The notes under the pieces are model-generated. The model was given only the letters and a program-made list of their open reading frames with translations. It ran no database searches and was not told where the DNA came from. From an uncultured Phascolarctobacterium sp. (GTDB lineage Bacteria; Bacillota; Negativicutes; Acidaminococcales; Acidaminococcaceae), in contig CAAEPE010000045.1 in assembly GCA_900757795.1 (NCBI GenBank), positions 33,062 to 97,061 on the forward strand: DNA of 64,000 nucleotides, in the 5' to 3' direction. The position numbers and the translations under genes were made by a program. This document shows, piece after piece, positions 13,781-37,684 of the stretch; position 1 is the first letter of the stretch, and the number at the start of each line of letters is the position of its first letter.

Positions 13781-15403
13781 TTACGCCTTACTGCTGCCGA
13801 ACAAATTCTTACGTGCTTCAAAGAACAGTGCGATTGCCAGTACAAAGAGTACAGTGCCAAGACCAGCAGTAATAAAGTGGCCTGCGCCAAAGTTTGCAGA
13901 TACAATTTGTACCAAAGCTACAAGCGTTACGCAGAACATAAACAGCATGGGAACTACAACCATCAAATTGGTTTTACCGACGCTCTTAAGCCATACGCCA
14001 ATAGCCAGCAGAGAAAGAGCAGCCAGCAGTTGGTTTGCTGCACCGAAAATCGGCCAAATGGTCAGATAAGAGCCTAAAGACATATAACCGGAAAGTACAA
14101 CGGTAATTAAAGTTGCTACATACGGATTGGTAAGAATAGAGCCTTCTGCTTTACCGGTTTCAGCGTTAACTTTAGTAAATAACTCTTGGAAAATGAAACG
14201 GCCCAAACGGGTGGAGGTATCCAAAGTAGTCATAGCAAAAGCGGAAATGGTTAAAGCAACAAAACCTTTTGCTACGCCGAAGGGGAAGCCGAAAGTTGTC
14301 ATAAAAGTACCAACGCCGTCAGCAAATACGTTTACAGGGCCGCCTGCTTTTAAAAGAGCGGTCAGTTTATCGCCGCCAACATAGCCAACAGCTACAACGG
14401 AAACAACTGCCAAAACGCCTTCCAACAGCATGGAACCATAACCAATCAAACGAGCGTTGCCTTCGTTATCCAGTTGTTTAGATGTAGTACCGGAAGAAAC
14501 TAAGCTGTGGAAACCGGAAATAGCGCCACAGGCAACGGTTACGAACAGCATGGGGAACATAGGATTGGTGCCTTTGCCGGAAGGATCAAAAGAGGTAACA
14601 GCCGGAAGCTGCATAGTAGGCTGATAAAGAATGATACCAATCAAAGCAAAAGCTATGCACGCATACAGCAGGAAAGAGTTCAAATAATCGCGGGGCTGAA
14701 GCAAAATCCAAACCGGAGCAATGGAAGCAATAAAAATATAGGCCATCAAAATACATACCCAAGTATTTTTGCTCAAAACGAGAGGGAACATATTACCCAA
14801 AGCGATGCAGATAATCAACAAAATAACACCTACAATGGTGCCAATGCTGAAGCTTACGCCGCCGCGATATACCGCTAAACCAAAAATTACAGCTAAAATA
14901 ATAAAGAGCAGGGAAGAGGTAGCAGCCTGCGGACTGGCAACAAAAGTTGCAGCAACAATGTTGGCAAATGCAGCGATAACAACCAGCAAGGTTACATAAG
15001 CAAAAATGGAGAACAAAAATTTGCCGCTTTTGCCTAAAGTTGCTTCAATAATTTGACCAATGGTTTTGCCTTCAAAACGTACAGAAGCGAACAATGCGCC
15101 AAAGTCATGCACGCCGCCGAAGAAAATACTGCCGACTAAAATCCACAGCATAACCGGAACCCAACCGAAAACTGCTGCGGTAATAGGGCCAACGATAGGG
15201 CCTGCACCGGCAATAGAGGAGAAATGGTGACCCATTAAAACGGCAGGGGGAGTGGGCATGTAGTCCACGTTGTCGCGCAAAGTTTCTGCCGGAGTTTTGC
15301 GCGATGGGTCGATACCCCATTTTTTACACAGCCAAGCGCCGTAAGTAGCATAGGCAATGAAGAAAATAATCATTGAGCCTGCGAGTAATAAAAATCCACT
15401 CAT
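13781..15403 (-). CDS. cstA: Carbon starvation protein A (CstA-family peptide/pyruvate transporter)
   Basis: Multi-TM CstA signature throughout. The true start is probably ATG 15403 (MSGFLLL), preceded by an AAGGAAG RBS. The ORF track extends to 15535 through the upstream UTR. Confidence 0.85.
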   Translation of the reverse strand: MSGFLLLAGSMIIFFIAYATYGAWLCKKWGIDPSRKTPAETLRDNVDYMPTPPAVLMGHHFSSIAGAGPIVGPITAAVFGWVPVMLWILVGSIFFGGVHDFGALFASVRFEGKTIGQIIEATLGKSGKFLFSIFAYVTLLVVIAAFANIVAATFVASPQAATSSLLFIILAVIFGLAVYRGGVSFSIGTIVGVILLIICIALGNMFPLVLSKNTWVCILMAYIFIASIAPVWILLQPRDYLNSFLLYACIAFALIGIILYQPTMQLPAVTSFDPSGKGTNPMFPMLFVTVACGAISGFHSLVSSGTTSKQLDNEGNARLIGYGSMLLEGVLAVVSVVAVGYVGGDKLTALLKAGGPVNVFADGVGTFMTTFGFPFGVAKGFVALTISAFAMTTLDTSTRLGRFIFQELFTKVNAETGKAEGSILTNPYVATLITVVLSGYMSLGSYLTIWPIFGAANQLLAALSLLAIGVWLKSVGKTNLMVVVPMLFMFCVTLVALVQIVSANFGAGHFITAGLGTVLFVLAIALFFEARKNLFGSSKA

Positions 15404-15628
15404 AAAAAAACTTCCTTTCTTACATTTGCTTCTTCGCAAAAAAATTATAAAAAATTGGCGCACAACAAACAAATATTGTGCAATACTTTCTAACAGTATA
15501 TCATATTTTGTATTTTTGTCAATAATTTTAGTCAAATAAACATGAAAGTGTAAACTTGTTGGACAAAAGCATAAAAATATGTTAACTTGTTCTGTACAAA
15601 TTATTCTGCATAGGCTTGTTGAAGAATT

Positions 15629-21289: not shown

Positions 21290-22069
21290 TTACGCTTCTA
21301 AATAAAATGCTTGCGCTTGTCTTGCTTCCTTACACTTTATTTCAAAGCCAGCTTGCGCTTGTTTGTACATTGGCTCATAATAATTTCTTGCATTAACAGG
21401 ACATATGCTGATACATGCGCCGCAGGATATACAAAGCTCGTTATTCGTTAGCTTAGGATTATCCATTGTAATAGCTTGCGCAGGGCATACGTTTACACAT
21501 TGCATGCAGCCAATACAGCTTTCATCGCCCTGTGGATGAAATGGCACACCTTTAAAAGCTAAGGGATCAAAATTTTTATCACCGGGTACAGTTAGTTTTC
21601 CATTGGCAATCAAATCATTGTTCGCTAAGATGTCTTTACATTGTAAAGCGAATTTTTCCATAGCAACATAATCCTCTTCATTAGGTCTGCCTGCTGCAAC
21701 GGTTGGGAAAATGGAATGTTCTGCTAAGAACGTGCCTGCTGCTATAACCTTAAAGCCTTGTTTTTCCAGCAAATCTTGCATTTGTATCAAAGCATTATCA
21801 AAATGACGATTGCCGTAAACAGCTTGGATAATGGCTGGAGTATTCTGTCCGTGCAATTTTTGGATTGGCTCTAAGCATATTTGCGGAATATAACCACCGT
21901 ACACTGGCATGGAAAAAAGCAAAACATCCTGCGTTAGCATATCAACGCTTACTCGCTCCTCTATGCTAAGCCAATTAAATGTTTTTATTTCCTTAGAAAT
22001 TTTCTGTACTACAAAATCCGCACATTTTTTCGTAGTTCCTTTAGCGCTAAAATAGATATTATATAACAT
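21290..22069 (-). CDS. Flavodoxin-like domain fused to a 2x[4Fe-4S] ferredoxin domain
   Basis: N-terminal flavodoxin fold (YFSAKGTTKK) and two CxxCxxCxxxCP motifs (CIGCMQCVNVCP, CISCGACISICP). The likely start is ATG 22069; the ORF track starts at TTG 22090. Confidence 0.7.
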   Translation of the reverse strand: MLYNIYFSAKGTTKKCADFVVQKISKEIKTFNWLSIEERVSVDMLTQDVLLFSMPVYGGYIPQICLEPIQKLHGQNTPAIIQAVYGNRHFDNALIQMQDLLEKQGFKVIAAGTFLAEHSIFPTVAAGRPNEEDYVAMEKFALQCKDILANNDLIANGKLTVPGDKNFDPLAFKGVPFHPQGDESCIGCMQCVNVCPAQAITMDNPKLTNNELCISCGACISICPVNARNYYEPMYKQAQAGFEIKCKEARQAQAFYLEA

Positions 22070-22253
22070 TATTATTACCGCCTTTCGCAAAATTTGCTTT
22101 GTAGAGTTCTAATTAAGCAATTGTTTTATAATAAAATTCGCTGTTTTTTTCTATTTTCCTGCTAACTAAATAGATTATGATAGATGTACATTTTATTTTA
22201 ACTTTTGAAACAAAAATAAATCAAAAACAATTATATAATTTACGCACTAATGT

Positions 22254-28717: not shown

Positions 28718-29671
28718 TTATTTCCCGCTTTTTGCGCTTTCATCTGCCGATTTTATATGCCGGGCTACTAAATATAGCGGTCTATGCTTAATTTCTTCAA
28801 AAATACGTCCAATATATTCACCTAAAATACCAATACCTACAAGCTCGATACCGCCAAGAAACAGCACGCTGACAGTGGTTGTTGCCCAACCTGGCACAGC
28901 GTCGTTGCTAATATATTTTACATAGAATACATGTACCAAAAGTAAAATGCTGGTAATACCAAATATTAAACCAACATAAAATGCCCAGCGCAGCGGCAGA
29001 TTAGAAAAAGCAGTAATGCCGTCTAAAGCAAAATGCAGCATTTTGTGCATACTAAATTTAGAGTGACCGGCAAATCGAGGTGGAGCAACAAATTCCAATA
29101 CCTTGACATTAAAGCCCAAAGTATTAACCAAGCCACGAATAAAACGCGCACGCTCACGATATTGCTTAAAAGCATCTACAGCTACTCTATCCATTAAGCG
29201 AAAATCACTGCCGCCGGGAGTGATTTCTACATTAGAAAGTATATTGATGAGCTTATAATAAACATCAGAGGTTATTTTTTTGAAAAAAGTAGCATCCTCA
29301 GTGTCCATACGTTTAGTTTGAACTATTTCACTTCCTTGCTCCCAAAAACGCAGCATTTGTGGCAGCAGCTCCGGCGGGTGCTGTAAATCGCCATCCATTG
29401 TAATAACTGCGTCACCATCGGCATTATCTAAGCCGCAGGTCAAAGCCATTTGGTGGCCATAGTTGCGGCTGAGTAAATAGGCTTCTACATGACTATCCGC
29501 TTTTGAGAGCTCGTTTAAAATGTTCCTACTGCCATCTTTAGAGCCGTCATCAATGAAAATTATATTGTAATCATAAGGCTCGGCTTGCATGATAGCAGTA
29601 GCTCGTTTATAAAATTCGTGTAAATTATCTTCCTCGTTAAAAACAGGAACAACTAAGGAGATTTTTTTCAT
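28718..29671 (-). CDS. Polyprenyl-phosphate family-2 glycosyltransferase (GtrB/ArnC/DPM1-like)
   Basis: N-terminal GT-A domain (LVVPVFNEEDNL, IFIDDGSKDGS, DGDLQHPP) followed by two C-terminal TM helices. The likely start is ATG 29671 (MKKISL). Confidence 0.8.
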   Translation of the reverse strand: MKKISLVVPVFNEEDNLHEFYKRATAIMQAEPYDYNIIFIDDGSKDGSRNILNELSKADSHVEAYLLSRNYGHQMALTCGLDNADGDAVITMDGDLQHPPELLPQMLRFWEQGSEIVQTKRMDTEDATFFKKITSDVYYKLINILSNVEITPGGSDFRLMDRVAVDAFKQYRERARFIRGLVNTLGFNVKVLEFVAPPRFAGHSKFSMHKMLHFALDGITAFSNLPLRWAFYVGLIFGITSILLLVHVFYVKYISNDAVPGWATTTVSVLFLGGIELVGIGILGEYIGRIFEEIKHRPLYLVARHIKSADESAKSGK

Positions 29672-29699
29672 ATACATCAACACCGTCTTTTCTAACCTA

Positions 29700-29724
29700 A
29701 GAAAAAGGCTGCCATAAAGGCAGC
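29700..29724 (-). terminator. Intrinsic terminator of rnpB
   Basis: On the minus strand: GGCTGCC-TTTAT-GGCAGCC followed by TTTTTCTTAGG. Confidence 0.6.
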
Positions 29725-29729
29725 CGTTG

Positions 29730-30087
29730 ATTTCAGTCGAGTACTCAATAAGCCGAGTTCTGTTCCGCAAAGCGGTGACAACCATTTATCTAGGCTTACA
29801 GTTACCTGTAAGCTCAAGCGACACAACCCGGAAGGCTCAGCGGGCCGCTTCATCCCTTCCCTATTTGGTCTTGCTCCGGATGGGGTTTACCTAGCCAGCC
29901 TGTTACCAAACTGCTGGTGCGCTCTTACCGCACCGTTCCACCCTTACCTGCCTAAGCAGGCGGTACTCATTTCTGTGGCACTATCCCTAAGATCACTCTC
30001 GCCGGACGTTATCCGGCATCCTGCCCTATGGAGCTCGGACTTTCCTCATCTGGCTTAAAGCCAGCCGCGGTCATCTTTCGTACTCAA
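29730..30087 (-). ncRNA. rnpB: RNase P RNA, type A (bacterial rnpB)
   Basis: The reverse complement contains the universal blocks GAGGAAAGTCCGAGCTCCATAGGGCAGG..., GTGCCACAGAAA, GGTAAGGGTGGAACGGTGCGGTAAGAGCGCACC, GGTAACAG, GGTAAACCCCATCCGGAGCAAGACCAAATAGGG, CTTGAGC and CCTAGATAAATGGTTGTCAC...GAACAGAACTCGGCTTA. GC-rich with no ORF. Ends estimated from the promoter and terminator. Confidence 0.9.
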
Positions 30088-30169: not shown

Positions 30170-30210
30170 TTAAAAAGTAAAGAGCCTGCTACACTAAGTA
30201 ACAGGCTCTG
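30170..30210 (-). terminator. Terminator after the EF-G paralog
   Basis: Stem AGAGCCTG/CAGGCTCT followed on the minus strand by TTACTTTTT. Confidence 0.5.
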
Positions 30211-30224
30211 TTTAGTATTATTGA

Positions 30225-32285
30225 TTATGCTTGCTTGCGTTCTGCGATAATTTTTTCAGCCATTTTTGCGGGAACATCTTCATAATGGTCAAATTTCATT
30301 TCAAAGGAACCTTGACCTTGAGTAATAGCGCGCAAATCAACTGCATATTCGGTAATTTCTGCATAAGGAACTTGAGCAGTTACAACACTCATGCCCTCTT
30401 CAACACTCTGCATACCTAAGATACGACCGCGTTTTTGATTCAAATCGCCAATAACGTCGCCCATCATGGAATCTGAGCAGGTTACATTTAAGGTATAGAT
30501 AGGCTCGAGGAGAACCGGCTTGCATTGCTCCATAGCTTTTTTGAAAGCAATATTGGAAGCAGTTTTGAAAGCCATTTCAGAAGAGTCTACCGGATGATAA
30601 GAACCGTCCAGCAAGGTAATACGCATATCTACTACAGGATAACCAGCCAAAATACCTTTTTCCATAGATTCGCGCATACCTTTTTCAACAGCAGGAATGT
30701 ACTGGCGAGGAACTGCACCACCGAAAATCTTATCAACAAATTCAAAACCACCGCCAGGAGTCATAGGCTCCATTTTGATTACAACATGACCGTATTGACC
30801 ATGACCGCCGGATTGTTTTTTATGTTTGCCTTCAACCTCAGCAGTTCCGCGAATGGTTTCACGATATTCGATAATCGGAGCTTTGAGCTGAGCTTCAACA
30901 CCAAACTTACGCTGCATGCGTTCCATAATGATTTCGATATGCTGGTCGCCCATGCCGCTAATTAAGGTTTCTTTAGTAACGGGATTCTTGGTTACGATAA
31001 TAGTAGGATCTTCATCCATCAGACGGGTCAAAGCAGACATAATCTTGTCCTCGTCGCCTTTTTTCTTAGGATAGATAGCTCTAGTGTACATAGGCAACGG
31101 GAATTGAATGGTCGGGAATTCGACTTCAGAGTTTTTGTCGCACAAAGTATCGCCGGTAGAAGTGTATTGCAGCTTAGCAACAACGCCAATATCGCCTGCT
31201 ACCACTTCTTTCATAGAAATTTGCGTTTTACCGCGCATAGTAAACACATTGCCAATGCGTTCTTCTTGTTCACGTCTAGAGTTATAAACCATGCTGTCAG
31301 CTTTAATGGAGCCGGAGAAAACACGGAAGAAGCTTAAACGGCCTACGAACGGATCAGAAGTTGTCTTAAATACTAAAGCTGCCATAGGAGCGTTGGCGTC
31401 GCGAATTTCTTCTTCACCGGTTTGTTTATCCATAACAACAAAGTCGTTCAAAATTGCCGGATAGGTAAAGTCAATAATAGCATTCATTAAACGACCCAAG
31501 CCAATGTTTTTATATGCGCTGCCGCAAAGCATAGGATAAATGATAGCTTGACGAATACCTTTAATCAAGCATTTCATGATATCTTCATTGCTGATGGTTT
31601 CGCCTTCAAGATAACGCATCATGCATTCATCATCAGCTTCAACTGCTGCCTCTACCATTTTTTCATGTGCTTCTTCAGCAGCTTGTCTAAATTCTTCAGG
31701 AATTTCGATTTCATCAGAACCGTTGCCGTTAGCACGGTATGCTTTCATTTTGTACAAATCGATAATGCCTTCAAATTTATCTTCTTTACCTAAAGGTAAT
31801 TGCAAAGGCAGAACGTGCTTACCAAATTTACCGCGCAGATTATCAAGAATACTGTCGAAATCAGCATTTTCACGATCCATTTTATTTACGAAAATAATAC
31901 GCGGCAAGCCAGCTTCTTCCGCTAATTTCCAGCATTGCTCAGTACCAACCTGTACGCCGCTGGTAGCACAAACAACGATCAAGGCGCTGTCCACTGCTCT
32001 GAATGCACCTTTAACCTCTGCTACGAAATCAGCAAAGCCGGGAGTATCAATAAAGTTGATTTTGGAATCACGCCACTCAACAGGAGCTAAGGTAGCGTTT
32101 ACAGAAACTTTACGTTTAATTTCTTCGGGTTCGTAGTCAGTGGTGGTAGCACCGTCTTCTACCTTGCACATTCTTGTAATAGCACCGCTGCGATACAACA
32201 GAGCTTCGGTAACAGACGTGGTTCCTGCTCCACCATGACCCACAATGGCCACGTTTCTAATTTTATCGCCAGTATACTCTTTCAT
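30225..32285 (-). CDS. Elongation factor G paralog (EF-G-like, five-domain) with degenerate G1 and switch II motifs
   Basis: 686 aa, collinear with EF-G (G domain, II, III, IV, V). The P-loop reads GHGGAGTTS (Lys replaced by Thr) and switch II reads DTPGFADF (catalytic His replaced by Phe). NKMD is intact. Confidence 0.8.
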   Translation of the reverse strand: MKEYTGDKIRNVAIVGHGGAGTTSVTEALLYRSGAITRMCKVEDGATTTDYEPEEIKRKVSVNATLAPVEWRDSKINFIDTPGFADFVAEVKGAFRAVDSALIVVCATSGVQVGTEQCWKLAEEAGLPRIIFVNKMDRENADFDSILDNLRGKFGKHVLPLQLPLGKEDKFEGIIDLYKMKAYRANGNGSDEIEIPEEFRQAAEEAHEKMVEAAVEADDECMMRYLEGETISNEDIMKCLIKGIRQAIIYPMLCGSAYKNIGLGRLMNAIIDFTYPAILNDFVVMDKQTGEEEIRDANAPMAALVFKTTSDPFVGRLSFFRVFSGSIKADSMVYNSRREQEERIGNVFTMRGKTQISMKEVVAGDIGVVAKLQYTSTGDTLCDKNSEVEFPTIQFPLPMYTRAIYPKKKGDEDKIMSALTRLMDEDPTIIVTKNPVTKETLISGMGDQHIEIIMERMQRKFGVEAQLKAPIIEYRETIRGTAEVEGKHKKQSGGHGQYGHVVIKMEPMTPGGGFEFVDKIFGGAVPRQYIPAVEKGMRESMEKGILAGYPVVDMRITLLDGSYHPVDSSEMAFKTASNIAFKKAMEQCKPVLLEPIYTLNVTCSDSMMGDVIGDLNQKRGRILGMQSVEEGMSVVTAQVPYAEITEYAVDLRAITQGQGSFEMKFDHYEDVPAKMAEKIIAERKQA

Positions 32286-32462
32286 AATAAGTCCTCCTTT
32301 ATTACAGGCAAATTTTAATATACATTTTCGCTAAATTTACGGATTATTCCTGCCAAGCAGACTTTTTTTTGCTTATATTTTTCCAACGAAGATAAAAATG
32401 TAAAGTAATTAACAGTTTTGCTTGTGTACTTTATAAGTTTAATTAAGCGTATGATTATTTTA

Positions 32463-33104
32463 CTAATGCTTTTGATGCTGCTTGTATATTTTGGTAAATT
32501 TTTCGGTTGTAGCTTTAATATTGTTAGTCCCTAAAATGCCGCTGATAATGGCGGCACCATCAGCGCCCGTTTTCAAAATCTGGCTGTAATTTTCTGCGTT
32601 TACACCGCCAATTCCTACTATGGGCAGCTTTATGGCACAGCGAATTTTACGTAAGTTTTCTAATCCCAAGGTAGAAGCATCTTTTTTAGTGGCAGTACCA
32701 AAAACGGCACCGCAGCCTAAATAATCTGCACCGGCAGCTACTGATTGTAATGCTTCTTCTACATTATGTGCGGAAACACCGATAATAAAATCTTTGCTAA
32801 CTATTTTTCTAACTGCTGCACAAGGCAAATCACTCTGTCCTATGTGAACGCCTGCCGCGCCTACGGCTAGCGCTAAATCTACTCTGTCATTAATAATCAG
32901 TGGTACAGAATATTTATCGCATAATTTTTTTAGCTTTATAGCCTCTTCATACATAGAACCACTGTCTTTATGCTTAGAGCGATATTGTACTAGCGTTACT
33001 CCGCCTTGCAAAGCTTCTTCCACGCATTGCAGCAATGGTCGACCTTGCAAGCAAGCATCATCGGTAACCAAATATATGCTATAATTAATTTGTGGCTTAC
33101 TCAT
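32463..33104 (-). CDS. thiE: Thiamine-phosphate synthase
   Basis: ThiE TIM-barrel motifs (YLVTD, LVQYRSK, IGIGGV). Confidence 0.85.
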   Translation of the reverse strand: MSKPQINYSIYLVTDDACLQGRPLLQCVEEALQGGVTLVQYRSKHKDSGSMYEEAIKLKKLCDKYSVPLIINDRVDLALAVGAAGVHIGQSDLPCAAVRKIVSKDFIIGVSAHNVEEALQSVAAGADYLGCGAVFGTATKKDASTLGLENLRKIRCAIKLPIVGIGGVNAENYSQILKTGADGAAIISGILGTNNIKATTEKFTKIYKQHQKH

Positions 33105-33928
33105 GATACTTTTTCTTCCGGTTTAAGATTGACTAGATTCCATTTAGTGGTTACATGATAAACGCAGTCGATAAGGCGCACCTTGAACATACCGGGACCG
33201 TCTTTTTTTTCTAAAAAGTTGGCAGCCAGCTCAGCGCTTTGTCCCATAATAACTACGCCTAAAGCAGCGGCAACCAGCATATCCTTAGTTACAGCTGCAC
33301 AGCAGCCTACAAGAGTTGTTGTCATGCAGCCGCTGCCAGTAATATCCTGCAAAAGTGGATGACCGTTATTTAAAACTACAGCCTGCTTGCCGTTGGAAAT
33401 ATTATCAATAGCGCCTGTAACGGCAAAGACGCAGTTAAATTTTGCGGCCGCATCCTTGGCAACTTTCAAAGCCACACCTTCCTCGGTTTCTCCTTCAATA
33501 TTGTCAACACCTTGACCGCTGGCAGTACCGTTTAATAGTGCGCTGCATTCACTGCAATTACCGCGAACAATATCAATACAGCTGTTATTTAACAGCTTTA
33601 ATGCAAAATTAAGGCGAAATTTAGAGGCCATAACGCCTACCGGGTCTAAAATTATAGGAATGCCCTTTGCTTTAGCGGCAGCCACAGAGCGCTCCATAGC
33701 AATCTGTTTATTAAAATTTAGCGTGCCGAGATTTAATATTAAAGCGTTGGCGCCAGCAGTAATTTCTGCTGCTTCCTCTGGCTCGTCTGCCATAATCGGA
33801 GAAGCTCCAGCAGCTAAAGCAACATCAGCACAGCTTTCTGCTGTTACATAATTGGTAATCTCATGGACAATCGGTCTTTGCTTACGCAGCTTATCAACAA
33901 GCTCGCCAAAAGTATTCGTCAAATCCAT
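33101..33928 (-). CDS. thiM: Hydroxyethylthiazole kinase
   Basis: ThiM family (HEITNYVTAESCADVALAAGASPIMAD, CVFAVTGAIDNISNG, GSGCM). Overlaps thiE by 4 nt. Confidence 0.85.
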   Translation of the reverse strand: MDLTNTFGELVDKLRKQRPIVHEITNYVTAESCADVALAAGASPIMADEPEEAAEITAGANALILNLGTLNFNKQIAMERSVAAAKAKGIPIILDPVGVMASKFRLNFALKLLNNSCIDIVRGNCSECSALLNGTASGQGVDNIEGETEEGVALKVAKDAAAKFNCVFAVTGAIDNISNGKQAVVLNNGHPLLQDITGSGCMTTTLVGCCAAVTKDMLVAAALGVVIMGQSAELAANFLEKKDGPGMFKVRLIDCVYHVTTKWNLVNLKPEEKVS

Positions 33929-34734
33929 TATTCTAAAATCCCTGCCTTTCTGTAAAGGTCAACAAAATGATGCGTGGGTCCGCAGCCGCTGCCTAAGGGA
34001 ATACCATGAGCAATAGCTTCGGTGACATAAGCCTTGGAAGCTTTGACTGCCTCCTCTAAGCTCATTCCCTTTGCTAAATTAGCCGCTAAACTGCTTGATA
34101 AGGTACAGCCTGTACCGTGCGTATTTTTAGTAGCAATACGTTGGCCCGCAAACCAAATTTCCTCATGTCCGTCAAAAAGTAAATCATCAGCAGTATCGTT
34201 TAAATGCCCGCCTTTAACAAGCACTGCCTTGGCTCCTAGAGAAATAATTTTTTCTGCCACTGGACGCATAGCTGCTTTAGTGCTTACTTGCACACCGCTG
34301 ATAGCTTCCGCTTCAGGCAGATTAGGTGTTACTAAGGTGGCCAGCGGCAAAAGCTCCTTAATCAAGGTTGCGCAAGCCTCCGGAGCCAGCAACGGATAGC
34401 CGCTTTTGGAAATCATCACAGGATCTAGTACAATAATTGGCGGCTGGTATTTGCGTAAGCTTTTGGCAATAGCTTCAATAGTTTCCGGTCGCGAAAGCAT
34501 ACCTATTTTTACTGCATCTACGCGGATATCGTCAAAAACTGCTGCAATCTGCGCTTCTACGACATCCGGCGCAATATCCTGCACCTTGGTAACGCCGCAG
34601 GTGTTCTGTGCGGTAACTGCCGTAATGACGCTCATGCCAAATGTTCCATGCGCGGCAAAGGTTTTTAAGTCAGCCTGAATACCTGCGCCGCCGCTGGAAT
34701 CGCTGCCGGCAATGGTTAATAAATGTTTAAGCAT
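33928..34734 (-). CDS. thiD: Hydroxymethylpyrimidine/phosphomethylpyrimidine kinase
   Basis: LTIAGSDSSGGAGIQADLKT ribokinase-family N-terminus and VKGGH motif. The likely start is M15 of the ORF (34734). Confidence 0.85.
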   Translation of the reverse strand: MLKHLLTIAGSDSSGGAGIQADLKTFAAHGTFGMSVITAVTAQNTCGVTKVQDIAPDVVEAQIAAVFDDIRVDAVKIGMLSRPETIEAIAKSLRKYQPPIIVLDPVMISKSGYPLLAPEACATLIKELLPLATLVTPNLPEAEAISGVQVSTKAAMRPVAEKIISLGAKAVLVKGGHLNDTADDLLFDGHEEIWFAGQRIATKNTHGTGCTLSSSLAANLAKGMSLEEAVKASKAYVTEAIAHGIPLGSGCGPTHHFVDLYRKAGILE

Positions 34735-34804
34735 GGAAAATCCTCTTTTCAGCAAAAGACCGAGGACGCGCTGCATCCCCGGCCTATAAAAATTATTTTT
34801 AAGA

Positions 34805-36787
34805 TTAGAGTGCTGCTTTTACTTTAGCAACAAGATTTTCTACAGTAAAGCCGTATTTTTCCATCATTACGCCGCCGGGAGCAGAAGCGCCGAAGGTAGT
34901 AATACCGAGCACATTCTTTTCGCTGCCGGTATAACGGCTCCAGCCGTAAGGAACGCCTGCTTCAACGGCAAATTTGACAACACCTGCGGGTAATACGCTT
35001 TCCTTATATTCCTCGCTTTGAGCGTCAAACAAATCCCAGCTGGGCATGGAAACTACGCTGGCAGCAATGCCCTCTTCTGCCAATTTAGTTTGCGCCTTCA
35101 ATGCAAGTTCTACCTCACTGCCGGTACCAATGAGGATAACCTTAGCAGCTTCTTTAGCAGGACTTAAAACATAAGCGCCTTTAGCTGCGTTTGCATGAAT
35201 AACAGCAGCATATTCGTGCATTACAGGCAAGTTTTGACGGCTTAACAGGAGGCAGGTCGGTTTTGTTTTGTTCAAAACAGCCTGCTGCCATGCAACGGCG
35301 GTTTCCAAAGCGTCTGCCGGACGAATTACGCTGACATTGGGAATCAAGCGCAGACCCATGGTTGTTTCAATAGGCTGATGTGTCGGGCCATCTTCGCCTA
35401 AAGCAATAGAATCATGAGTAAGTACAAATATAGATTGAATCCCCATAAGCGCAGCCATACGAATAGTTGGACGCAGGAAGTCTGCAAATACTAAGAAAGT
35501 ACCGCCAAAGGGAATAAAGCCGCCATGAAGAGAAATACCATTTAAAACAGTACCCATAGCATGTTCGCGCACGCCAAAGTGAAGATTACGTCCTTTGTGA
35601 TCAAGCTTGGAGAAGTAACCGCCATTTTTAATGACCGTTTTATTAGAGGGACCAAGGTCAGCGCTGCCGCCTACTAATGCAGGAAGCTGCTCCGCCAGCT
35701 TTTGAATTACATCGCCGGAGGAAGCGCGGGTTGCGCTTTTAGCAGTATCTTTGAAAATTGCTTCCAAAGCTTCCAAATCAACGTTAACTTCACCTGCAAT
35801 GCGGGCTGCTAATTCTTTTGCCAATTCCGGATAGCAAACTGCATAATCCTTCATGAGGGTATCCCAATCAGTTTCTGCTTTAGCACAAGCAGACAGCTTA
35901 GCTGTAAAATGCTCTTTAACTTCTGCGGGAACGTAGAACATTTCCTGCGTCCAGCCAGCTTTTTCTTTTGTAGCAGCCAAAGCGTCTGCGCCCAAAGGTT
36001 CGCCATGGCAGGACGGACTGTCTTGTTTAGGACTGCCAAAACCAATGTGGGTGCGGACAATAATCAAGGACGGATGAGTAGTATCAGATTTAGCTTCTGC
36101 GATTGCAGCAGTCATAGCTTCAATATCTTCAGAATCTGCTACGCGCAGCACTTGCCAGCCGTAGGCTTTAAAACGAGCTTCTACATCCTCGGTGAATGCA
36201 ATGGAGGTATCGCCTTCAATAGTAATTTTATTATCGTCATAGAGATAAATAAGTTTGCCCAAGCCTAAGGTTCCGGCTAAAGAAGCAGCCTCACAAGAAA
36301 CGCCTTCCATTAAATCGCCATCAGATGTCAAACCGTATGTATAATGGTCTACAACAGGAAAATCTGGCTTATTGTATTGTCCTGCCAGCATTGCTTCTGC
36401 AATAGCAAAACCAACGCCCATAGCAAAACCGTGACCTAAGGGACCAGTAGAAACGTCAACACCGGGAGTTAAGCCATATTCAGGATGTCCGGGTGTTTTG
36501 CTGCCCCATTGGCGGAAATTTTTTAATTCCTCCAAAGACAGATCATAGCCTGCTAAATGCAGCATAGCATACAGCAGTGCGCTGCCGTGACCAGGAGAAA
36601 GAATAAAACGGTCGCGGTTAAACCAATTAGGATTAGCAGGATTGTAGTTCATATAACGATCCCAAACAGTATACATTAAAGGAGCAGTACCCAAAGGAAA
36701 ACCGGGATGGCCGGATTTAGCCTTCTCTACTTGGTCTGCTGCCAAAAAACGCAGAGTATTTACACAAGCTTGATCAATCTTTTGCAT
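34805..36787 (-). CDS. tkt: Transketolase
   Basis: TPP-binding GHPG near the N-terminus, GDGDLMEG, the pyrimidine-binding domain and a C-terminal domain. The likely start is MQKID (36787). Confidence 0.9.
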   Translation of the reverse strand: MQKIDQACVNTLRFLAADQVEKAKSGHPGFPLGTAPLMYTVWDRYMNYNPANPNWFNRDRFILSPGHGSALLYAMLHLAGYDLSLEELKNFRQWGSKTPGHPEYGLTPGVDVSTGPLGHGFAMGVGFAIAEAMLAGQYNKPDFPVVDHYTYGLTSDGDLMEGVSCEAASLAGTLGLGKLIYLYDDNKITIEGDTSIAFTEDVEARFKAYGWQVLRVADSEDIEAMTAAIAEAKSDTTHPSLIIVRTHIGFGSPKQDSPSCHGEPLGADALAATKEKAGWTQEMFYVPAEVKEHFTAKLSACAKAETDWDTLMKDYAVCYPELAKELAARIAGEVNVDLEALEAIFKDTAKSATRASSGDVIQKLAEQLPALVGGSADLGPSNKTVIKNGGYFSKLDHKGRNLHFGVREHAMGTVLNGISLHGGFIPFGGTFLVFADFLRPTIRMAALMGIQSIFVLTHDSIALGEDGPTHQPIETTMGLRLIPNVSVIRPADALETAVAWQQAVLNKTKPTCLLLSRQNLPVMHEYAAVIHANAAKGAYVLSPAKEAAKVILIGTGSEVELALKAQTKLAEEGIAASVVSMPSWDLFDAQSEEYKESVLPAGVVKFAVEAGVPYGWSRYTGSEKNVLGITTFGASAPGGVMMEKYGFTVENLVAKVKAAL

Positions 36788-36873
36788 CGAAACAACCTCC
36801 ATTTACATAAAATGTCTACAGTTATTATATCATGTTTTAATTTCTTGTACAAAGTTTTCTTTTGAGATTATAC

Positions 36874-36912
36874 AGAAAAACCGGAGACTGGTAAGTCTCC
36901 GGCAAAATTTTT
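36874..36912. terminator. Bidirectional terminator between codY and tkt
   Basis: Stem CCGGAGACT/AGTCTCCGG with T-runs on both strands. Confidence 0.55.
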
Positions 36913-37684
36913 AATATTTTCTTTTCTTTAATTCTTCAAAAAGCAGCTCGTTGCGTACACGAATATACGTGCCTTTCATACCCAAGGATTTAGTTTCAAT
37001 CAGTCCGGCGCTTTCAAATTTACGCAAAGCATTAACGATAACAGAACGAGTAATGCCTACGCGGTCAGCAATTTTAGAAGCAACCAGCAGACCTTCGCGA
37101 CCATTAAGCTCGCCTAAAATATTGCTGATAGCTTCCATTTCAGAATATGATAAAGTATCGAAAGCAATTTGAATCATTGCTCTTTTGCGTATTTCGTCAG
37201 CTACCTGCGCTTCTCTGTCGTGTAAAATTTCTACACCTAAAACAGTAGCGGTATACTCTGCCAGCAGCAAATCCTCATCATCAAATTTAGCGTCGTATTT
37301 AGCAACAATCAAAGTGCCAATACGCTCTGCCTTGCCATAAATAGGTACGACGGTTGTCATTTTATCTTTAAAAATACATTTAGTATTGGCAACGAAAGAA
37401 CAGTTTTGGTTTTCGTGCGGAATATTAGCAAAGGTGTCTCTTACACCCATAATAAATCTCAAATAATCTTCGGGAAAGGAGTTATTATTCAAAACCTGTT
37501 CCCGCATAATATCACATTCAAATTCATGGATTAAAGCATAGCCTTTAACCTCACCGTCAGCACCGACAATATATGTATTAGCTTTAATAATATTGCACAA
37601 TAATTGAGCAATAGCGTTATACTCTACTCTGTCGCCATTTTGCAGCAATCTATTTATTTTTCTTGTTTTCTCTAATAATTCCAT
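36911..37684 (-). CDS. codY: GTP/BCAA-sensing global regulator CodY
   Basis: GAF-like N-terminal domain and C-terminal wHTH (ASKIADRVGITRSVIVNALRKFESAGLIE), a near-canonical CodY sequence. Confidence 0.9.
   Translation of the reverse strand: MELLEKTRKINRLLQNGDRVEYNAIAQLLCNIIKANTYIVGADGEVKGYALIHEFECDIMREQVLNNNSFPEDYLRFIMGVRDTFANIPHENQNCSFVANTKCIFKDKMTTVVPIYGKAERIGTLIVAKYDAKFDDEDLLLAEYTATVLGVEILHDREAQVADEIRKRAMIQIAFDTLSYSEMEAISNILGELNGREGLLVASKIADRVGITRSVIVNALRKFESAGLIETKSLGMKGTYIRVRNELLFEELKKRKY

Follow-up and report, generated by a model that had tools for sequence, protein, structure and literature searches.

An EFG II protein of Acidaminococcaceae with a fixed replacement of the P-loop lysine: a candidate hydrolysis-independent ribosome factor

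Does translocation by elongation factor G (EF-G) need the hydrolysis of guanosine triphosphate (GTP), or even a bound triphosphate? This long-standing question has been sharpened recently by work on Bacteroides EF-G2 and by single-molecule studies. It is raised again by a gene on the minus strand (30225-32285) of a 64,000-nucleotide stretch of DNA from an uncultured Phascolarctobacterium sp. of the family Acidaminococcaceae (contig CAAEPE010000045.1, positions 33,062 to 97,061), hereafter called the window. The gene encodes an EF-G-like protein in which the lysine of the P-loop is replaced by threonine and the histidine of switch II by phenylalanine. A preliminary description had proposed a hydrolysis-dead paralog of EF-G, for example a ribosome-binding regulator or a protection factor. 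Is the gene a functional one, which of the replacements is peculiar to it, and what may such a factor do? As judged from the alignments described below, what is new and distinctive is solely the loss of the Walker-A Lys, which is shared by the whole family and maintained by selection. The features of the GTPase centre are as follows.

32214..32240, minus strand: G1 or P-loop, GHGGAGTTS, residues 16-24, for canonical AHIDAGKTT
32220-32222, minus strand: codon ACC of Thr22, opposite the Walker-A Lys in the alignment to Thermus thermophilus EF-G
32100..32114, minus strand: G2 or switch I, RKVSV, for canonical RGITI, with Ser61 at the position of the Mg-ligand Thr
32025..32048, minus strand: G3 or switch II, DTPGFADF, residues 80-87, for canonical DTPGHVDF
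32034-32036, minus strand: codon TTT of Phe84, opposite the switch-II His in the same alignment
31875..31886, minus strand: G4, NKMD, residues 134-137, for guanine specificity, kept
31506..31523, minus strand: G5, GSAYKN, for guanine-base contact, kept, with Ser256 and Ala257 invariant
31443..31469, minus strand: clade-specific linker FTYPAILND after the G domain, residues 273-281, longer by one residue (Thr274)

The motifs of canonical EF-G (EFG I, the fusA product), AHIDAGKT, RGITI, and DTPGH, are all altered in the window protein, which has GHGGAGTT, RKVSV, and DTPGF. With Thr in place of Lys, the P-loop departs from the Walker A pattern GxxxxGK[ST] and also from the published G1 consensus of EFG II, GhxxxGKT (PMC3150367). 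Gly19 stands where AHIDAGKT has the Asp for the monovalent cation. The replaced elements (the switch-II His, the P-loop H-I-D, and RGITI) are those by which canonical factors activate hydrolysis at the sarcin-ricin loop. The G3 DxxG, G4 NKxD, and G5 SAx motifs and the Mg ligands are present; T23, S61, D80, N134, K135, D137, S256, and A257 are invariant in 77 orthologs with synonymous turnover, and so is G83. The preliminary description had read the P-loop Thr, the switch-II Phe with its codon, and the NKMD motif as the alignment has them. It had also given the letters of G1 correctly, while its coordinates for that motif (32214-32237) missed the codon of the first Gly.

Is the loss of the Lys common among relatives of this protein? 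The EF-G-family matches with E<1e-30 number about 6,000, and the counts given here cover the best 150 representatives and three sets of 120 neighbours. The 150 representatives of 50%-identity clusters were aligned to the query, and the 145 non-canonical ones in the trimmed tree set were counted. The P-loop Lys is present in 144 of these 145 other EFG-II-like representatives. In the Acidaminococcaceae, all of the full-length clusters (119/119, of the 120 closest) combine Thr in place of the Lys with Phe in place of the His. At the species level, Thr22 is found in 77/77 genes and is encoded by all four codons (ACC in 40, ACT in 16, ACG in 15, and ACA in 6), and Phe84 is found in 77/77 genes with both TTT and TTC. 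The sister clade in Selenomonadaceae has Lys in 119/119 proteins, and the Sumerlaeota relatives have it in 105/105 scorable proteins. The ortholog comparison that the preliminary description had called for was thus answered in favour of shared substitutions. The Lys-to-Thr replacement would have arisen once on the Acidaminococcaceae stem and have been fixed since.

An apparent second K-to-T lineage, represented by a protein (P0179, GHSGSGTTT) from a Sumerlaeota metagenome-assembled genome (MAG), was rejected. It is a singleton, and its 90% cluster mates and 105 relatives have Lys. Its Thr is an individual variant or an assembly error, not a lineage trait, and gives no evidence of convergence. 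In the Selenomonadaceae EFG II proteins (P0124 and P0452-P0570), the P-loop reads GHG(K/R)xGKTS, with an additional basic residue and the Lys kept. The charge of the P-loop has been shifted in opposite directions in the two sister clades, since the Acidaminococcaceae have GHGGAGTTS.

I screened for positions that are invariant in the clade and rare outside it. K22T gave by far the strongest signal, and the only further notable hits were F95, C239, E473, C603, and an insertion with the LPSP linker changed to YPAILND. This linker, (Y)LPSP(L/T)D, is near-universal after the G domain, and its replacement is specific to the clade without the P-loop Lys; of 146 other aligned sequences, 145 have no residue inserted at position 274. 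The fixed Thr and the replaced linker set the Acidaminococcaceae proteins apart from the rest of the EFG II subfamily, and in the sets examined Thr is nowhere else a fixed state. A literature search for an EF-G paralog without the P-loop Lys, or for a "pseudoGTPase" EF-G, returned nothing relevant.

The orthologs are 99% identical in a gut Phascolarctobacterium MAG, 93% in P. succinatutens, 86% in P. faecium, at least 80% in Succiniclasticum and other Acidaminococcaceae, and 77% in Acidaminococcus. The gene (83-94% identity) was also found on seven contigs (L013, L014, L020, L021, L054, L059, and L070) whose bins are labelled Segatella copri, Bacteroidaceae, Escherichia coli, Bacteroides sp., Duodenibacillus, Acholeplasmataceae, and Fibrobacter. 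Most likely, these are mis-binned contigs in public MAGs.

The His-to-Phe replacement is a different matter. At the switch-II His position, the 145 EFG-II-like representatives have Tyr in 67, Phe in 32, Asp in 11, His in only 4, and other residues in the remainder. The position of the cation-binding Asp in the P-loop is Gly in 106 of the 145, and the G2 Thr position is Ser in 114. The relaxed G2 and the Gly16 of EFG II have already been described, and RxxSI is the Clostridia-type variant of EFG II (PMC3150367). Three of the four departures in the GTPase centre (His to an aromatic residue, Asp to Gly, and RGITI to RxxSx) are therefore common to EFG II in general. The preliminary description had treated both substitutions as distinctive, which holds for Lys-to-Thr and fails for His-to-Phe. 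Nor is His-to-Phe alone diagnostic of a dead GTPase, because the Tyr-bearing EFG II proteins of Thermus and Mycobacterium smegmatis differ in their reported GTPase activity.

By signature, profile, and tree, the window protein is the Acidaminococcaceae ortholog of EFG II, a widespread second EF-G paralog. The signature positions were taken from Margus, Remm and Tenson 2011 (PMC3150367) and scored by alignment to 1WDT. Ten of the 12 are identical (G16, T291, G333, K352, D216, L264, K471, K472, E513, and G603), and both mismatches are conservative (L25 to Val and V250 to Met). The best model is NCBIfam NF009381 (PRK12740.1-5, EF-G subfamily), which matches the whole protein with 954.5 bits (cutoff 583). 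Two EF-G2 models stay below their cutoffs, namely NF009377 (EF-G-like protein EF-G2; 660.7 bits against 890) and NF058620 (Bacteroides-type EF-G2; 605 bits against 1000), and the match to the latter splits after profile position 509 of 717. The canonical model TIGR00484 is passed with 739 bits against 659, and because of this the public databases label these orthologs merely "elongation factor G". The name conceals both the paralogy and the loss of the motifs. Metaproteome and metatranscriptome papers give EF-G only at the KEGG level, with the paralogs merged.

In a neighbour-joining tree of 163 sequences, the Acidaminococcaceae proteins are monophyletic with a long stem (0.139), and the nearest sister is a Schwartzia (Selenomonadaceae) EFG II protein. 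Like other EFG II proteins, the window protein has five domains, the signature residues, an RxxSx-type G2, Gly for the cation Asp, and a replaced His; its gene lies away from the str operon, and canonical EF-G coexists with EFG II in the family. Margus et al. 2011 describe EFG II as always having another EF-G beside it in the genome. In the curated table of Atkinson 2015, Acidaminococcus fermentans DSM 20731 has a canonical EFG (YP_003399599.1, about 691 residues), with an accession consecutive with that of the EF-Tu entry, and an EFGII (YP_003398177.1) of about 687 residues, a length matching that of the window protein. Selenomonas and Veillonella are also listed with both EFG and EFGII. No second EF-G-like open reading frame (ORF) was found in the window, and no rpsL, rpsG, or tuf was found among its annotated ORFs. 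The gene is outside any str operon (rpsL-rpsG-fusA-tuf). The earlier view of the protein as a paralog and not the housekeeping EF-G agrees with the location, with the signature, and with the presence of both genes in A. fermentans. The gene and the domains of its product are as follows.

30225..32285, minus strand: coding sequence of the EFG II-type EF-G paralog, 686 residues, ATG start (ORF list and sequence)
31467-32264, minus strand: G domain, GTP_EFTU, residues 8-273 (Pfam)
31137-31388, minus strand: domain II, EF-G_D2, residues 300-383 (Pfam)
30882-31103, minus strand: domain III, EFG_III, residues 395-468 (Pfam)
30519-30875, minus strand: domain IV, EFG_IV, residues 471-589 (Pfam)
30252-30515, minus strand: domain V, EFG_C, residues 591-678 (Pfam)
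30786..30830, minus strand: domain IV tip loop I, GKHKKQSGGHGQYGH, with the EFG II signature KK (K471 and K472 in 1WDT numbering)
30579..30605, minus strand: domain IV tip loop II, GSYHPVDSS, with the conserved tip His
32293..32300, minus strand: Shine-Dalgarno sequence AAAGGAGG, 7 nucleotides before the ATG, called strong (direct reading)
30181..30209, minus strand: intrinsic terminator just 3' of the stop codon, with a 12-bp stem, a 5-nucleotide loop, and a T-rich tail

All five EF-G domains are found in order with Pfam E-values from 1e-19 to 1e-47, which gives the architecture of the EF-G/EF-2 family. T. thermophilus EF-G aligns with the protein end to end (648 bits, 45% identity), and the tip of domain IV is conserved between the two. 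The collinearity noticed in the preliminary description is borne out by both results, and the terminator that it assigned to the gene is in place. In tip loop I, Q491, G493, and G496 are invariant in 85 EFG I and EFG II sequences; in tip loop II, G561, H564, V566, and D567 are invariant in the same alignment. The codon bias of the gene (effective number of codons 40.4) is the second strongest, by lowest value, among 50 ORFs of the window.

Is the gene functional? The ratio of nonsynonymous to synonymous substitution rates (dN/dS) was estimated by the Nei-Gojobori method; since dS is about 1.3 and near saturation, the ranking of the regions is firmer than the absolute values. The core of the G domain is the tightest region (0.027, with 71% of residues invariant), followed by domain IV (0.045), domain III (0.056), and the G' subdomain and domain II (about 0.09), and the overall value is about 0.05. 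An AlphaFold2 (AF2) model built from 85 sequences has a mean predicted local distance difference test score (pLDDT) of 91.4, with 94-95 for the P-loop blocks, and a predicted template modelling score of 0.83. Its best match is 7n2v, a ribosome-bound, active, elongated EF-G (template modelling score, TM, 0.96; root-mean-square deviation 2.1 A). By its substitution pattern, the gene is a functional EFG II ortholog under strong purifying selection.

When and how might the gene be expressed? The upstream region contains two conserved elements.

32324..32353, minus strand: bipartite promoter-like motif GCAGGAATA-N12-AGCGAAAAT, which ends 38 nucleotides before the ATG
32399..32414, minus strand: 16-bp near-palindrome TGTTAATTACTTTACA, family consensus TGTWAY-N4-RTTACA, a putative regulator-binding site

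The bipartite motif agrees at 14 of the 15 specified positions with the Bacillus sigma-H (Spo0H) consensus RNAGGAWWW / RNNGAATWW, as quoted in PMC8510167. It is equally placed in about 55 of 71 orthologous upstream regions of Acidaminococcaceae, in both gene arrangements, and its boxes are more conserved than the spacer and the flanks. A relaxed form of the pattern has 4 matches in the window against 0.28 expected. The motif is missing from the Succiniclasticum-type loci, where a strong promoter of the sigma-A extended -10 type is present instead. Judged by this motif, the EFG II gene may be under transition-phase or starvation control. A second sigma-H-like copy, AGGAAAATAGAAAAAAACAGCGAATTT (22134-22160, minus strand), lies 44 nucleotides upstream of an ORF for a 4Fe-4S ferredoxin-domain protein (21290-22090, minus strand), which may belong to the same regulon.

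Of the 71 upstream regions, 48 have the near-palindrome at -119 to -137 relative to the ATG, whereas about 0.03 occurrences per region would be expected by chance. Its right half is a -35-like hexamer, with a promoter-like match at 32404..32377, and its centre lies about 90 nucleotides upstream of the inferred transcription start. Both upstream elements persist in different genera and despite changes in gene order. The near-palindrome is a putative regulator-binding site, possibly CRP/FNR-like; it resembles the 5-N6-5 type of CRP/FNR site. BT4338 of Bacteroides thetaiotaomicron is a CRP-like protein. The resemblance is notable because fusA2, the EF-G2 gene of B. thetaiotaomicron, depends on BT4338, which PMC10294740 calls the master regulator of carbohydrate utilization. 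Together, the two upstream elements hint that the gene is switched on as nutrients become limiting. A CodY box in the leader (AATTTAGCGAAAATG) was also considered; it agrees with the consensus at only 11 of 15 positions and is not conserved as such in other species, and it was dropped for the sigma-H-like reading.

What may such a factor do? I favour, with a probability of roughly 0.6, a GTP-hydrolysis-independent EFG II ribosome factor that would act in the elongation phase and be used when energy is scarce. The factor would dock in the factor site and the A site of the ribosome like EF-G. It would still bind a guanine nucleotide, and ribosome-activated GTP hydrolysis would be impossible. The wording "nucleotide-binding but hydrolysis-dead" of the preliminary description is a reasonable hypothesis. 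The factor would then act through binding energy alone, either as a slow, hydrolysis-independent translocase or as an elongation-phase factor under energy limitation, following the precedent of Bacteroides EF-G2. The Lys-to-Thr replacement removes the charge holding the beta and gamma phosphates in place and would lead to weaker or altered triphosphate binding. It may be speculated that a weaker hold on the nucleotide makes release from the ribosome easier without hydrolysis. According to single-molecule work, hydrolysis and the release of inorganic phosphate are needed mainly for the release of EF-G, and a weak nucleotide hold is for this reason a plausible way of turnover without hydrolysis.

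The precedent is B. thetaiotaomicron EF-G2 (fusA2, BT2167; 7UVP and 8DMF), which is likewise the second EF-G of a gut anaerobe. The AF2 model superposes on the ribosome-bound 8dmf (TM 0.86, 34% identity), and the two proteins are collinear over residues 1-511 of the window protein. This factor is reported to enable GTP-independent translation, and its gene is the most induced one on carbon limitation (PMC10294740); it is cited as translocating without GTP hydrolysis (PMC12775393). Nevertheless, the window protein is not its ortholog; the 7uvp chain has 718 residues, 32 more than the window protein, and the match splits after residue 511. Reportedly, a 26-residue region specific to B. thetaiotaomicron is responsible for the lack of GTPase activity of its EF-G2. 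No insertion of this kind is present in the window protein, in which the P-loop Lys is gone instead. If both factors do have the same function, they came to it by separate routes.

Two EFG II proteins have been characterised with Tyr at the His position. T. thermophilus EF-G-2 (1WDT and 2DY1) resembles the window protein with 40% identity, a TM of 0.82, Gly16, and an aromatic residue in switch II (DAPGYGDF), and it is reported to be GTPase-active and translocating. M. smegmatis EF-G2 (9K0Z) is also of the EFG II type, with DTPGYADF and a degenerate G2 (QQRSV), but its P-loop (GPSGGGKTT) still has the Lys, and its similarity to the window protein is lower (485 bits, split over two stretches). 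Reports give it minimal or no ribosome-dependent GTPase activity, no recycling activity, and the role of a stress-specific regulator. In the mycobacterial EF-G1, the H88Y replacement almost abolished GTPase activity.

Several points weigh against a hydrolysis-independent elongation factor. GTP binding, hydrolysis, and translocation in this clade are all deduced from sequence. T. thermophilus EF-G-2 still hydrolyses GTP with Tyr, and a loss of catalysis is for this reason unreadable from the His position alone. A tight G core with all other ligands kept would also fit an active, non-canonical GTPase, and the absolute dN/dS values are approximate. The mechanism of B. thetaiotaomicron EF-G2 may not be transferable to a protein that is not its ortholog, and the role described for M. 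smegmatis EF-G2 is stress regulation rather than translocation. The assignment to sigma-H is a match to a consensus. Finally, the window contains no canonical fusA, and for this genome the presence of a canonical EF-G beside EFG II is inferred from the relatives.

The main rival is a non-translocating, ribosome-binding regulator, which would occupy the factor site under stress to slow, pause, or protect the ribosome, a role that has been proposed for the mycobacterial EF-G2. I regard it as possible but rather unlikely. The properties of M. smegmatis EF-G2 speak for it, a factor without the P-loop Lys could be held in a single state, and the sigma-H-like promoter fits a role in a stress phase. 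In contrast, the tip loops of domain IV, with which EF-G works in the decoding centre as translocation proceeds, show no variation and are strongly constrained, the signature KK is kept in loop I, and the strong codon bias suggests an abundant working factor over a low-copy regulator, although none of these points is decisive.

A working GTPase with non-canonical chemistry, in which a monovalent cation, another residue, or the ribosome stands in for the Lys, seems improbable. T. thermophilus EF-G-2 is an example of activity with Tyr for His, and here all other nucleotide and Mg ligands are invariant in the most constrained part of the protein. Molecular dynamics has also indicated that monovalent cations can fill the P-loop Lys site in free Mg-nucleoside triphosphate (PMC6310460). 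However, the Asp that holds the activating cation in canonical factors is Gly in this protein. A compensating, clade-fixed Lys or Arg was sought, and R32, K92, R265, and a few more distant residues were found; all look distal by sequence position, and none is expected near the phosphates.

A ribosomal protection protein of the Tet(M)/Tet(O) type, or another antibiotic-displacing factor, is very improbable. The window protein does belong to the same superfamily and matches the tetracycline ribosomal protection model weakly, and the solved chain of B. thetaiotaomicron EF-G2 was deposited under the name TetQ. However, the score for that model (NF012153, tet_protect) is 362.4 bits against a cutoff of 775, and those for the Tet(M), Tet(Q), and Otr(A) models are far under their cutoffs. 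Domain IV is EF-G-like, and the gene is inherited vertically in a conserved chromosomal context across the family, not on a mobile element. The protection factor suggested in the preliminary description finds no support here. As for a sequencing error or a decaying fusA pseudogene, for which only the unusual residues themselves speak, it can be dismissed in view of the intact frame, the fixation of both residues in 77/77 genes with synonymous turnover, the dN/dS of about 0.05 overall and 0.03 in the G core, and the confident fold; neither of the two findings that the preliminary description had named as fatal to its view, a sequencing error or orthologs with the canonical K and H, was encountered.

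The gene lies between rnpB and the thi genes, as noted before. The neighbours are listed below.

29734-30086, minus strand: rnpB, RNase P class A, 303.6 bits (Rfam)
32463-36802: tkt-thiD-thiM-thiE, with thiE, thiM, and thiD directly upstream of the EFG II gene, so that thiE and rnpB flank it

Across the family (the window and loci L001-L080), the EFG II gene always adjoins tkt-thiD-thiM-thiE, while order and orientation vary. In the group of the window it follows thiE; in most other genera it precedes tkt on the same strand, and in Succiniclasticum it and tkt are divergently oriented. The linkage may simply be family-level synteny. No thiamine pyrophosphate riboswitch was found at the Rfam gathering threshold in 27-37 kb, including the regions upstream of thiD and tkt (32463-36910), where genes of thiamine salvage might be expected to have one, and the same Rfam search for regulatory RNAs found only rnpB and three tRNAs.

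The mechanical ORF of a family-2 glycosyltransferase (28718-29785, minus strand) overlaps the 3' end of rnpB. Translation probably begins at the Met at 29677 (MKKISLVVPVFNE...), and with this start rnpB and its terminator (29707-29725) lie outside the ORF. The nutrient-sensing repressor gene codY (36911-37684, minus strand) lies 4.6 kb upstream on the same strand as the EFG II gene, and the carbon-starvation transporter gene cstA (13781-15535, minus strand) is also in the window. No evidence was found that links codY or cstA to the EFG II gene.

What would the EFG II protein mean for these bacteria? It is a highly conserved and apparently well-expressed paralog, which has lacked the Lys throughout the history of the family while the other nucleotide ligands and the translocation tip were kept. 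It may be regarded as a natural experiment one step beyond the work on Bacteroides EF-G2, from which one may learn what parts of the GTPase cycle an EF-G-type factor can spare. A bolder and rather doubtful form of the proposal is that the protein is a natural, selectively kept translational "pseudo-GTPase", that is, a hydrolysis-free EF-G-type ribosome factor (a translocase or otherwise) with little or no dependence on triphosphate, which would drive translocation by binding energy. If this were true, the Acidaminococcaceae would be the first known bacterial lineage in which a core-type translation factor has, as a fixed trait, given up the P-loop Lys. It would also mean a lower GTP cost per peptide bond, which is relevant because the Acidaminococcaceae live on very low-energy fermentations (decarboxylation of succinate or amino acids). 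Phascolarctobacterium and Acidaminococcus are abundant fermenters of succinate and amino acids in the gut, and an energy-saving elongation factor could help them to persist on such very low-yield substrates.

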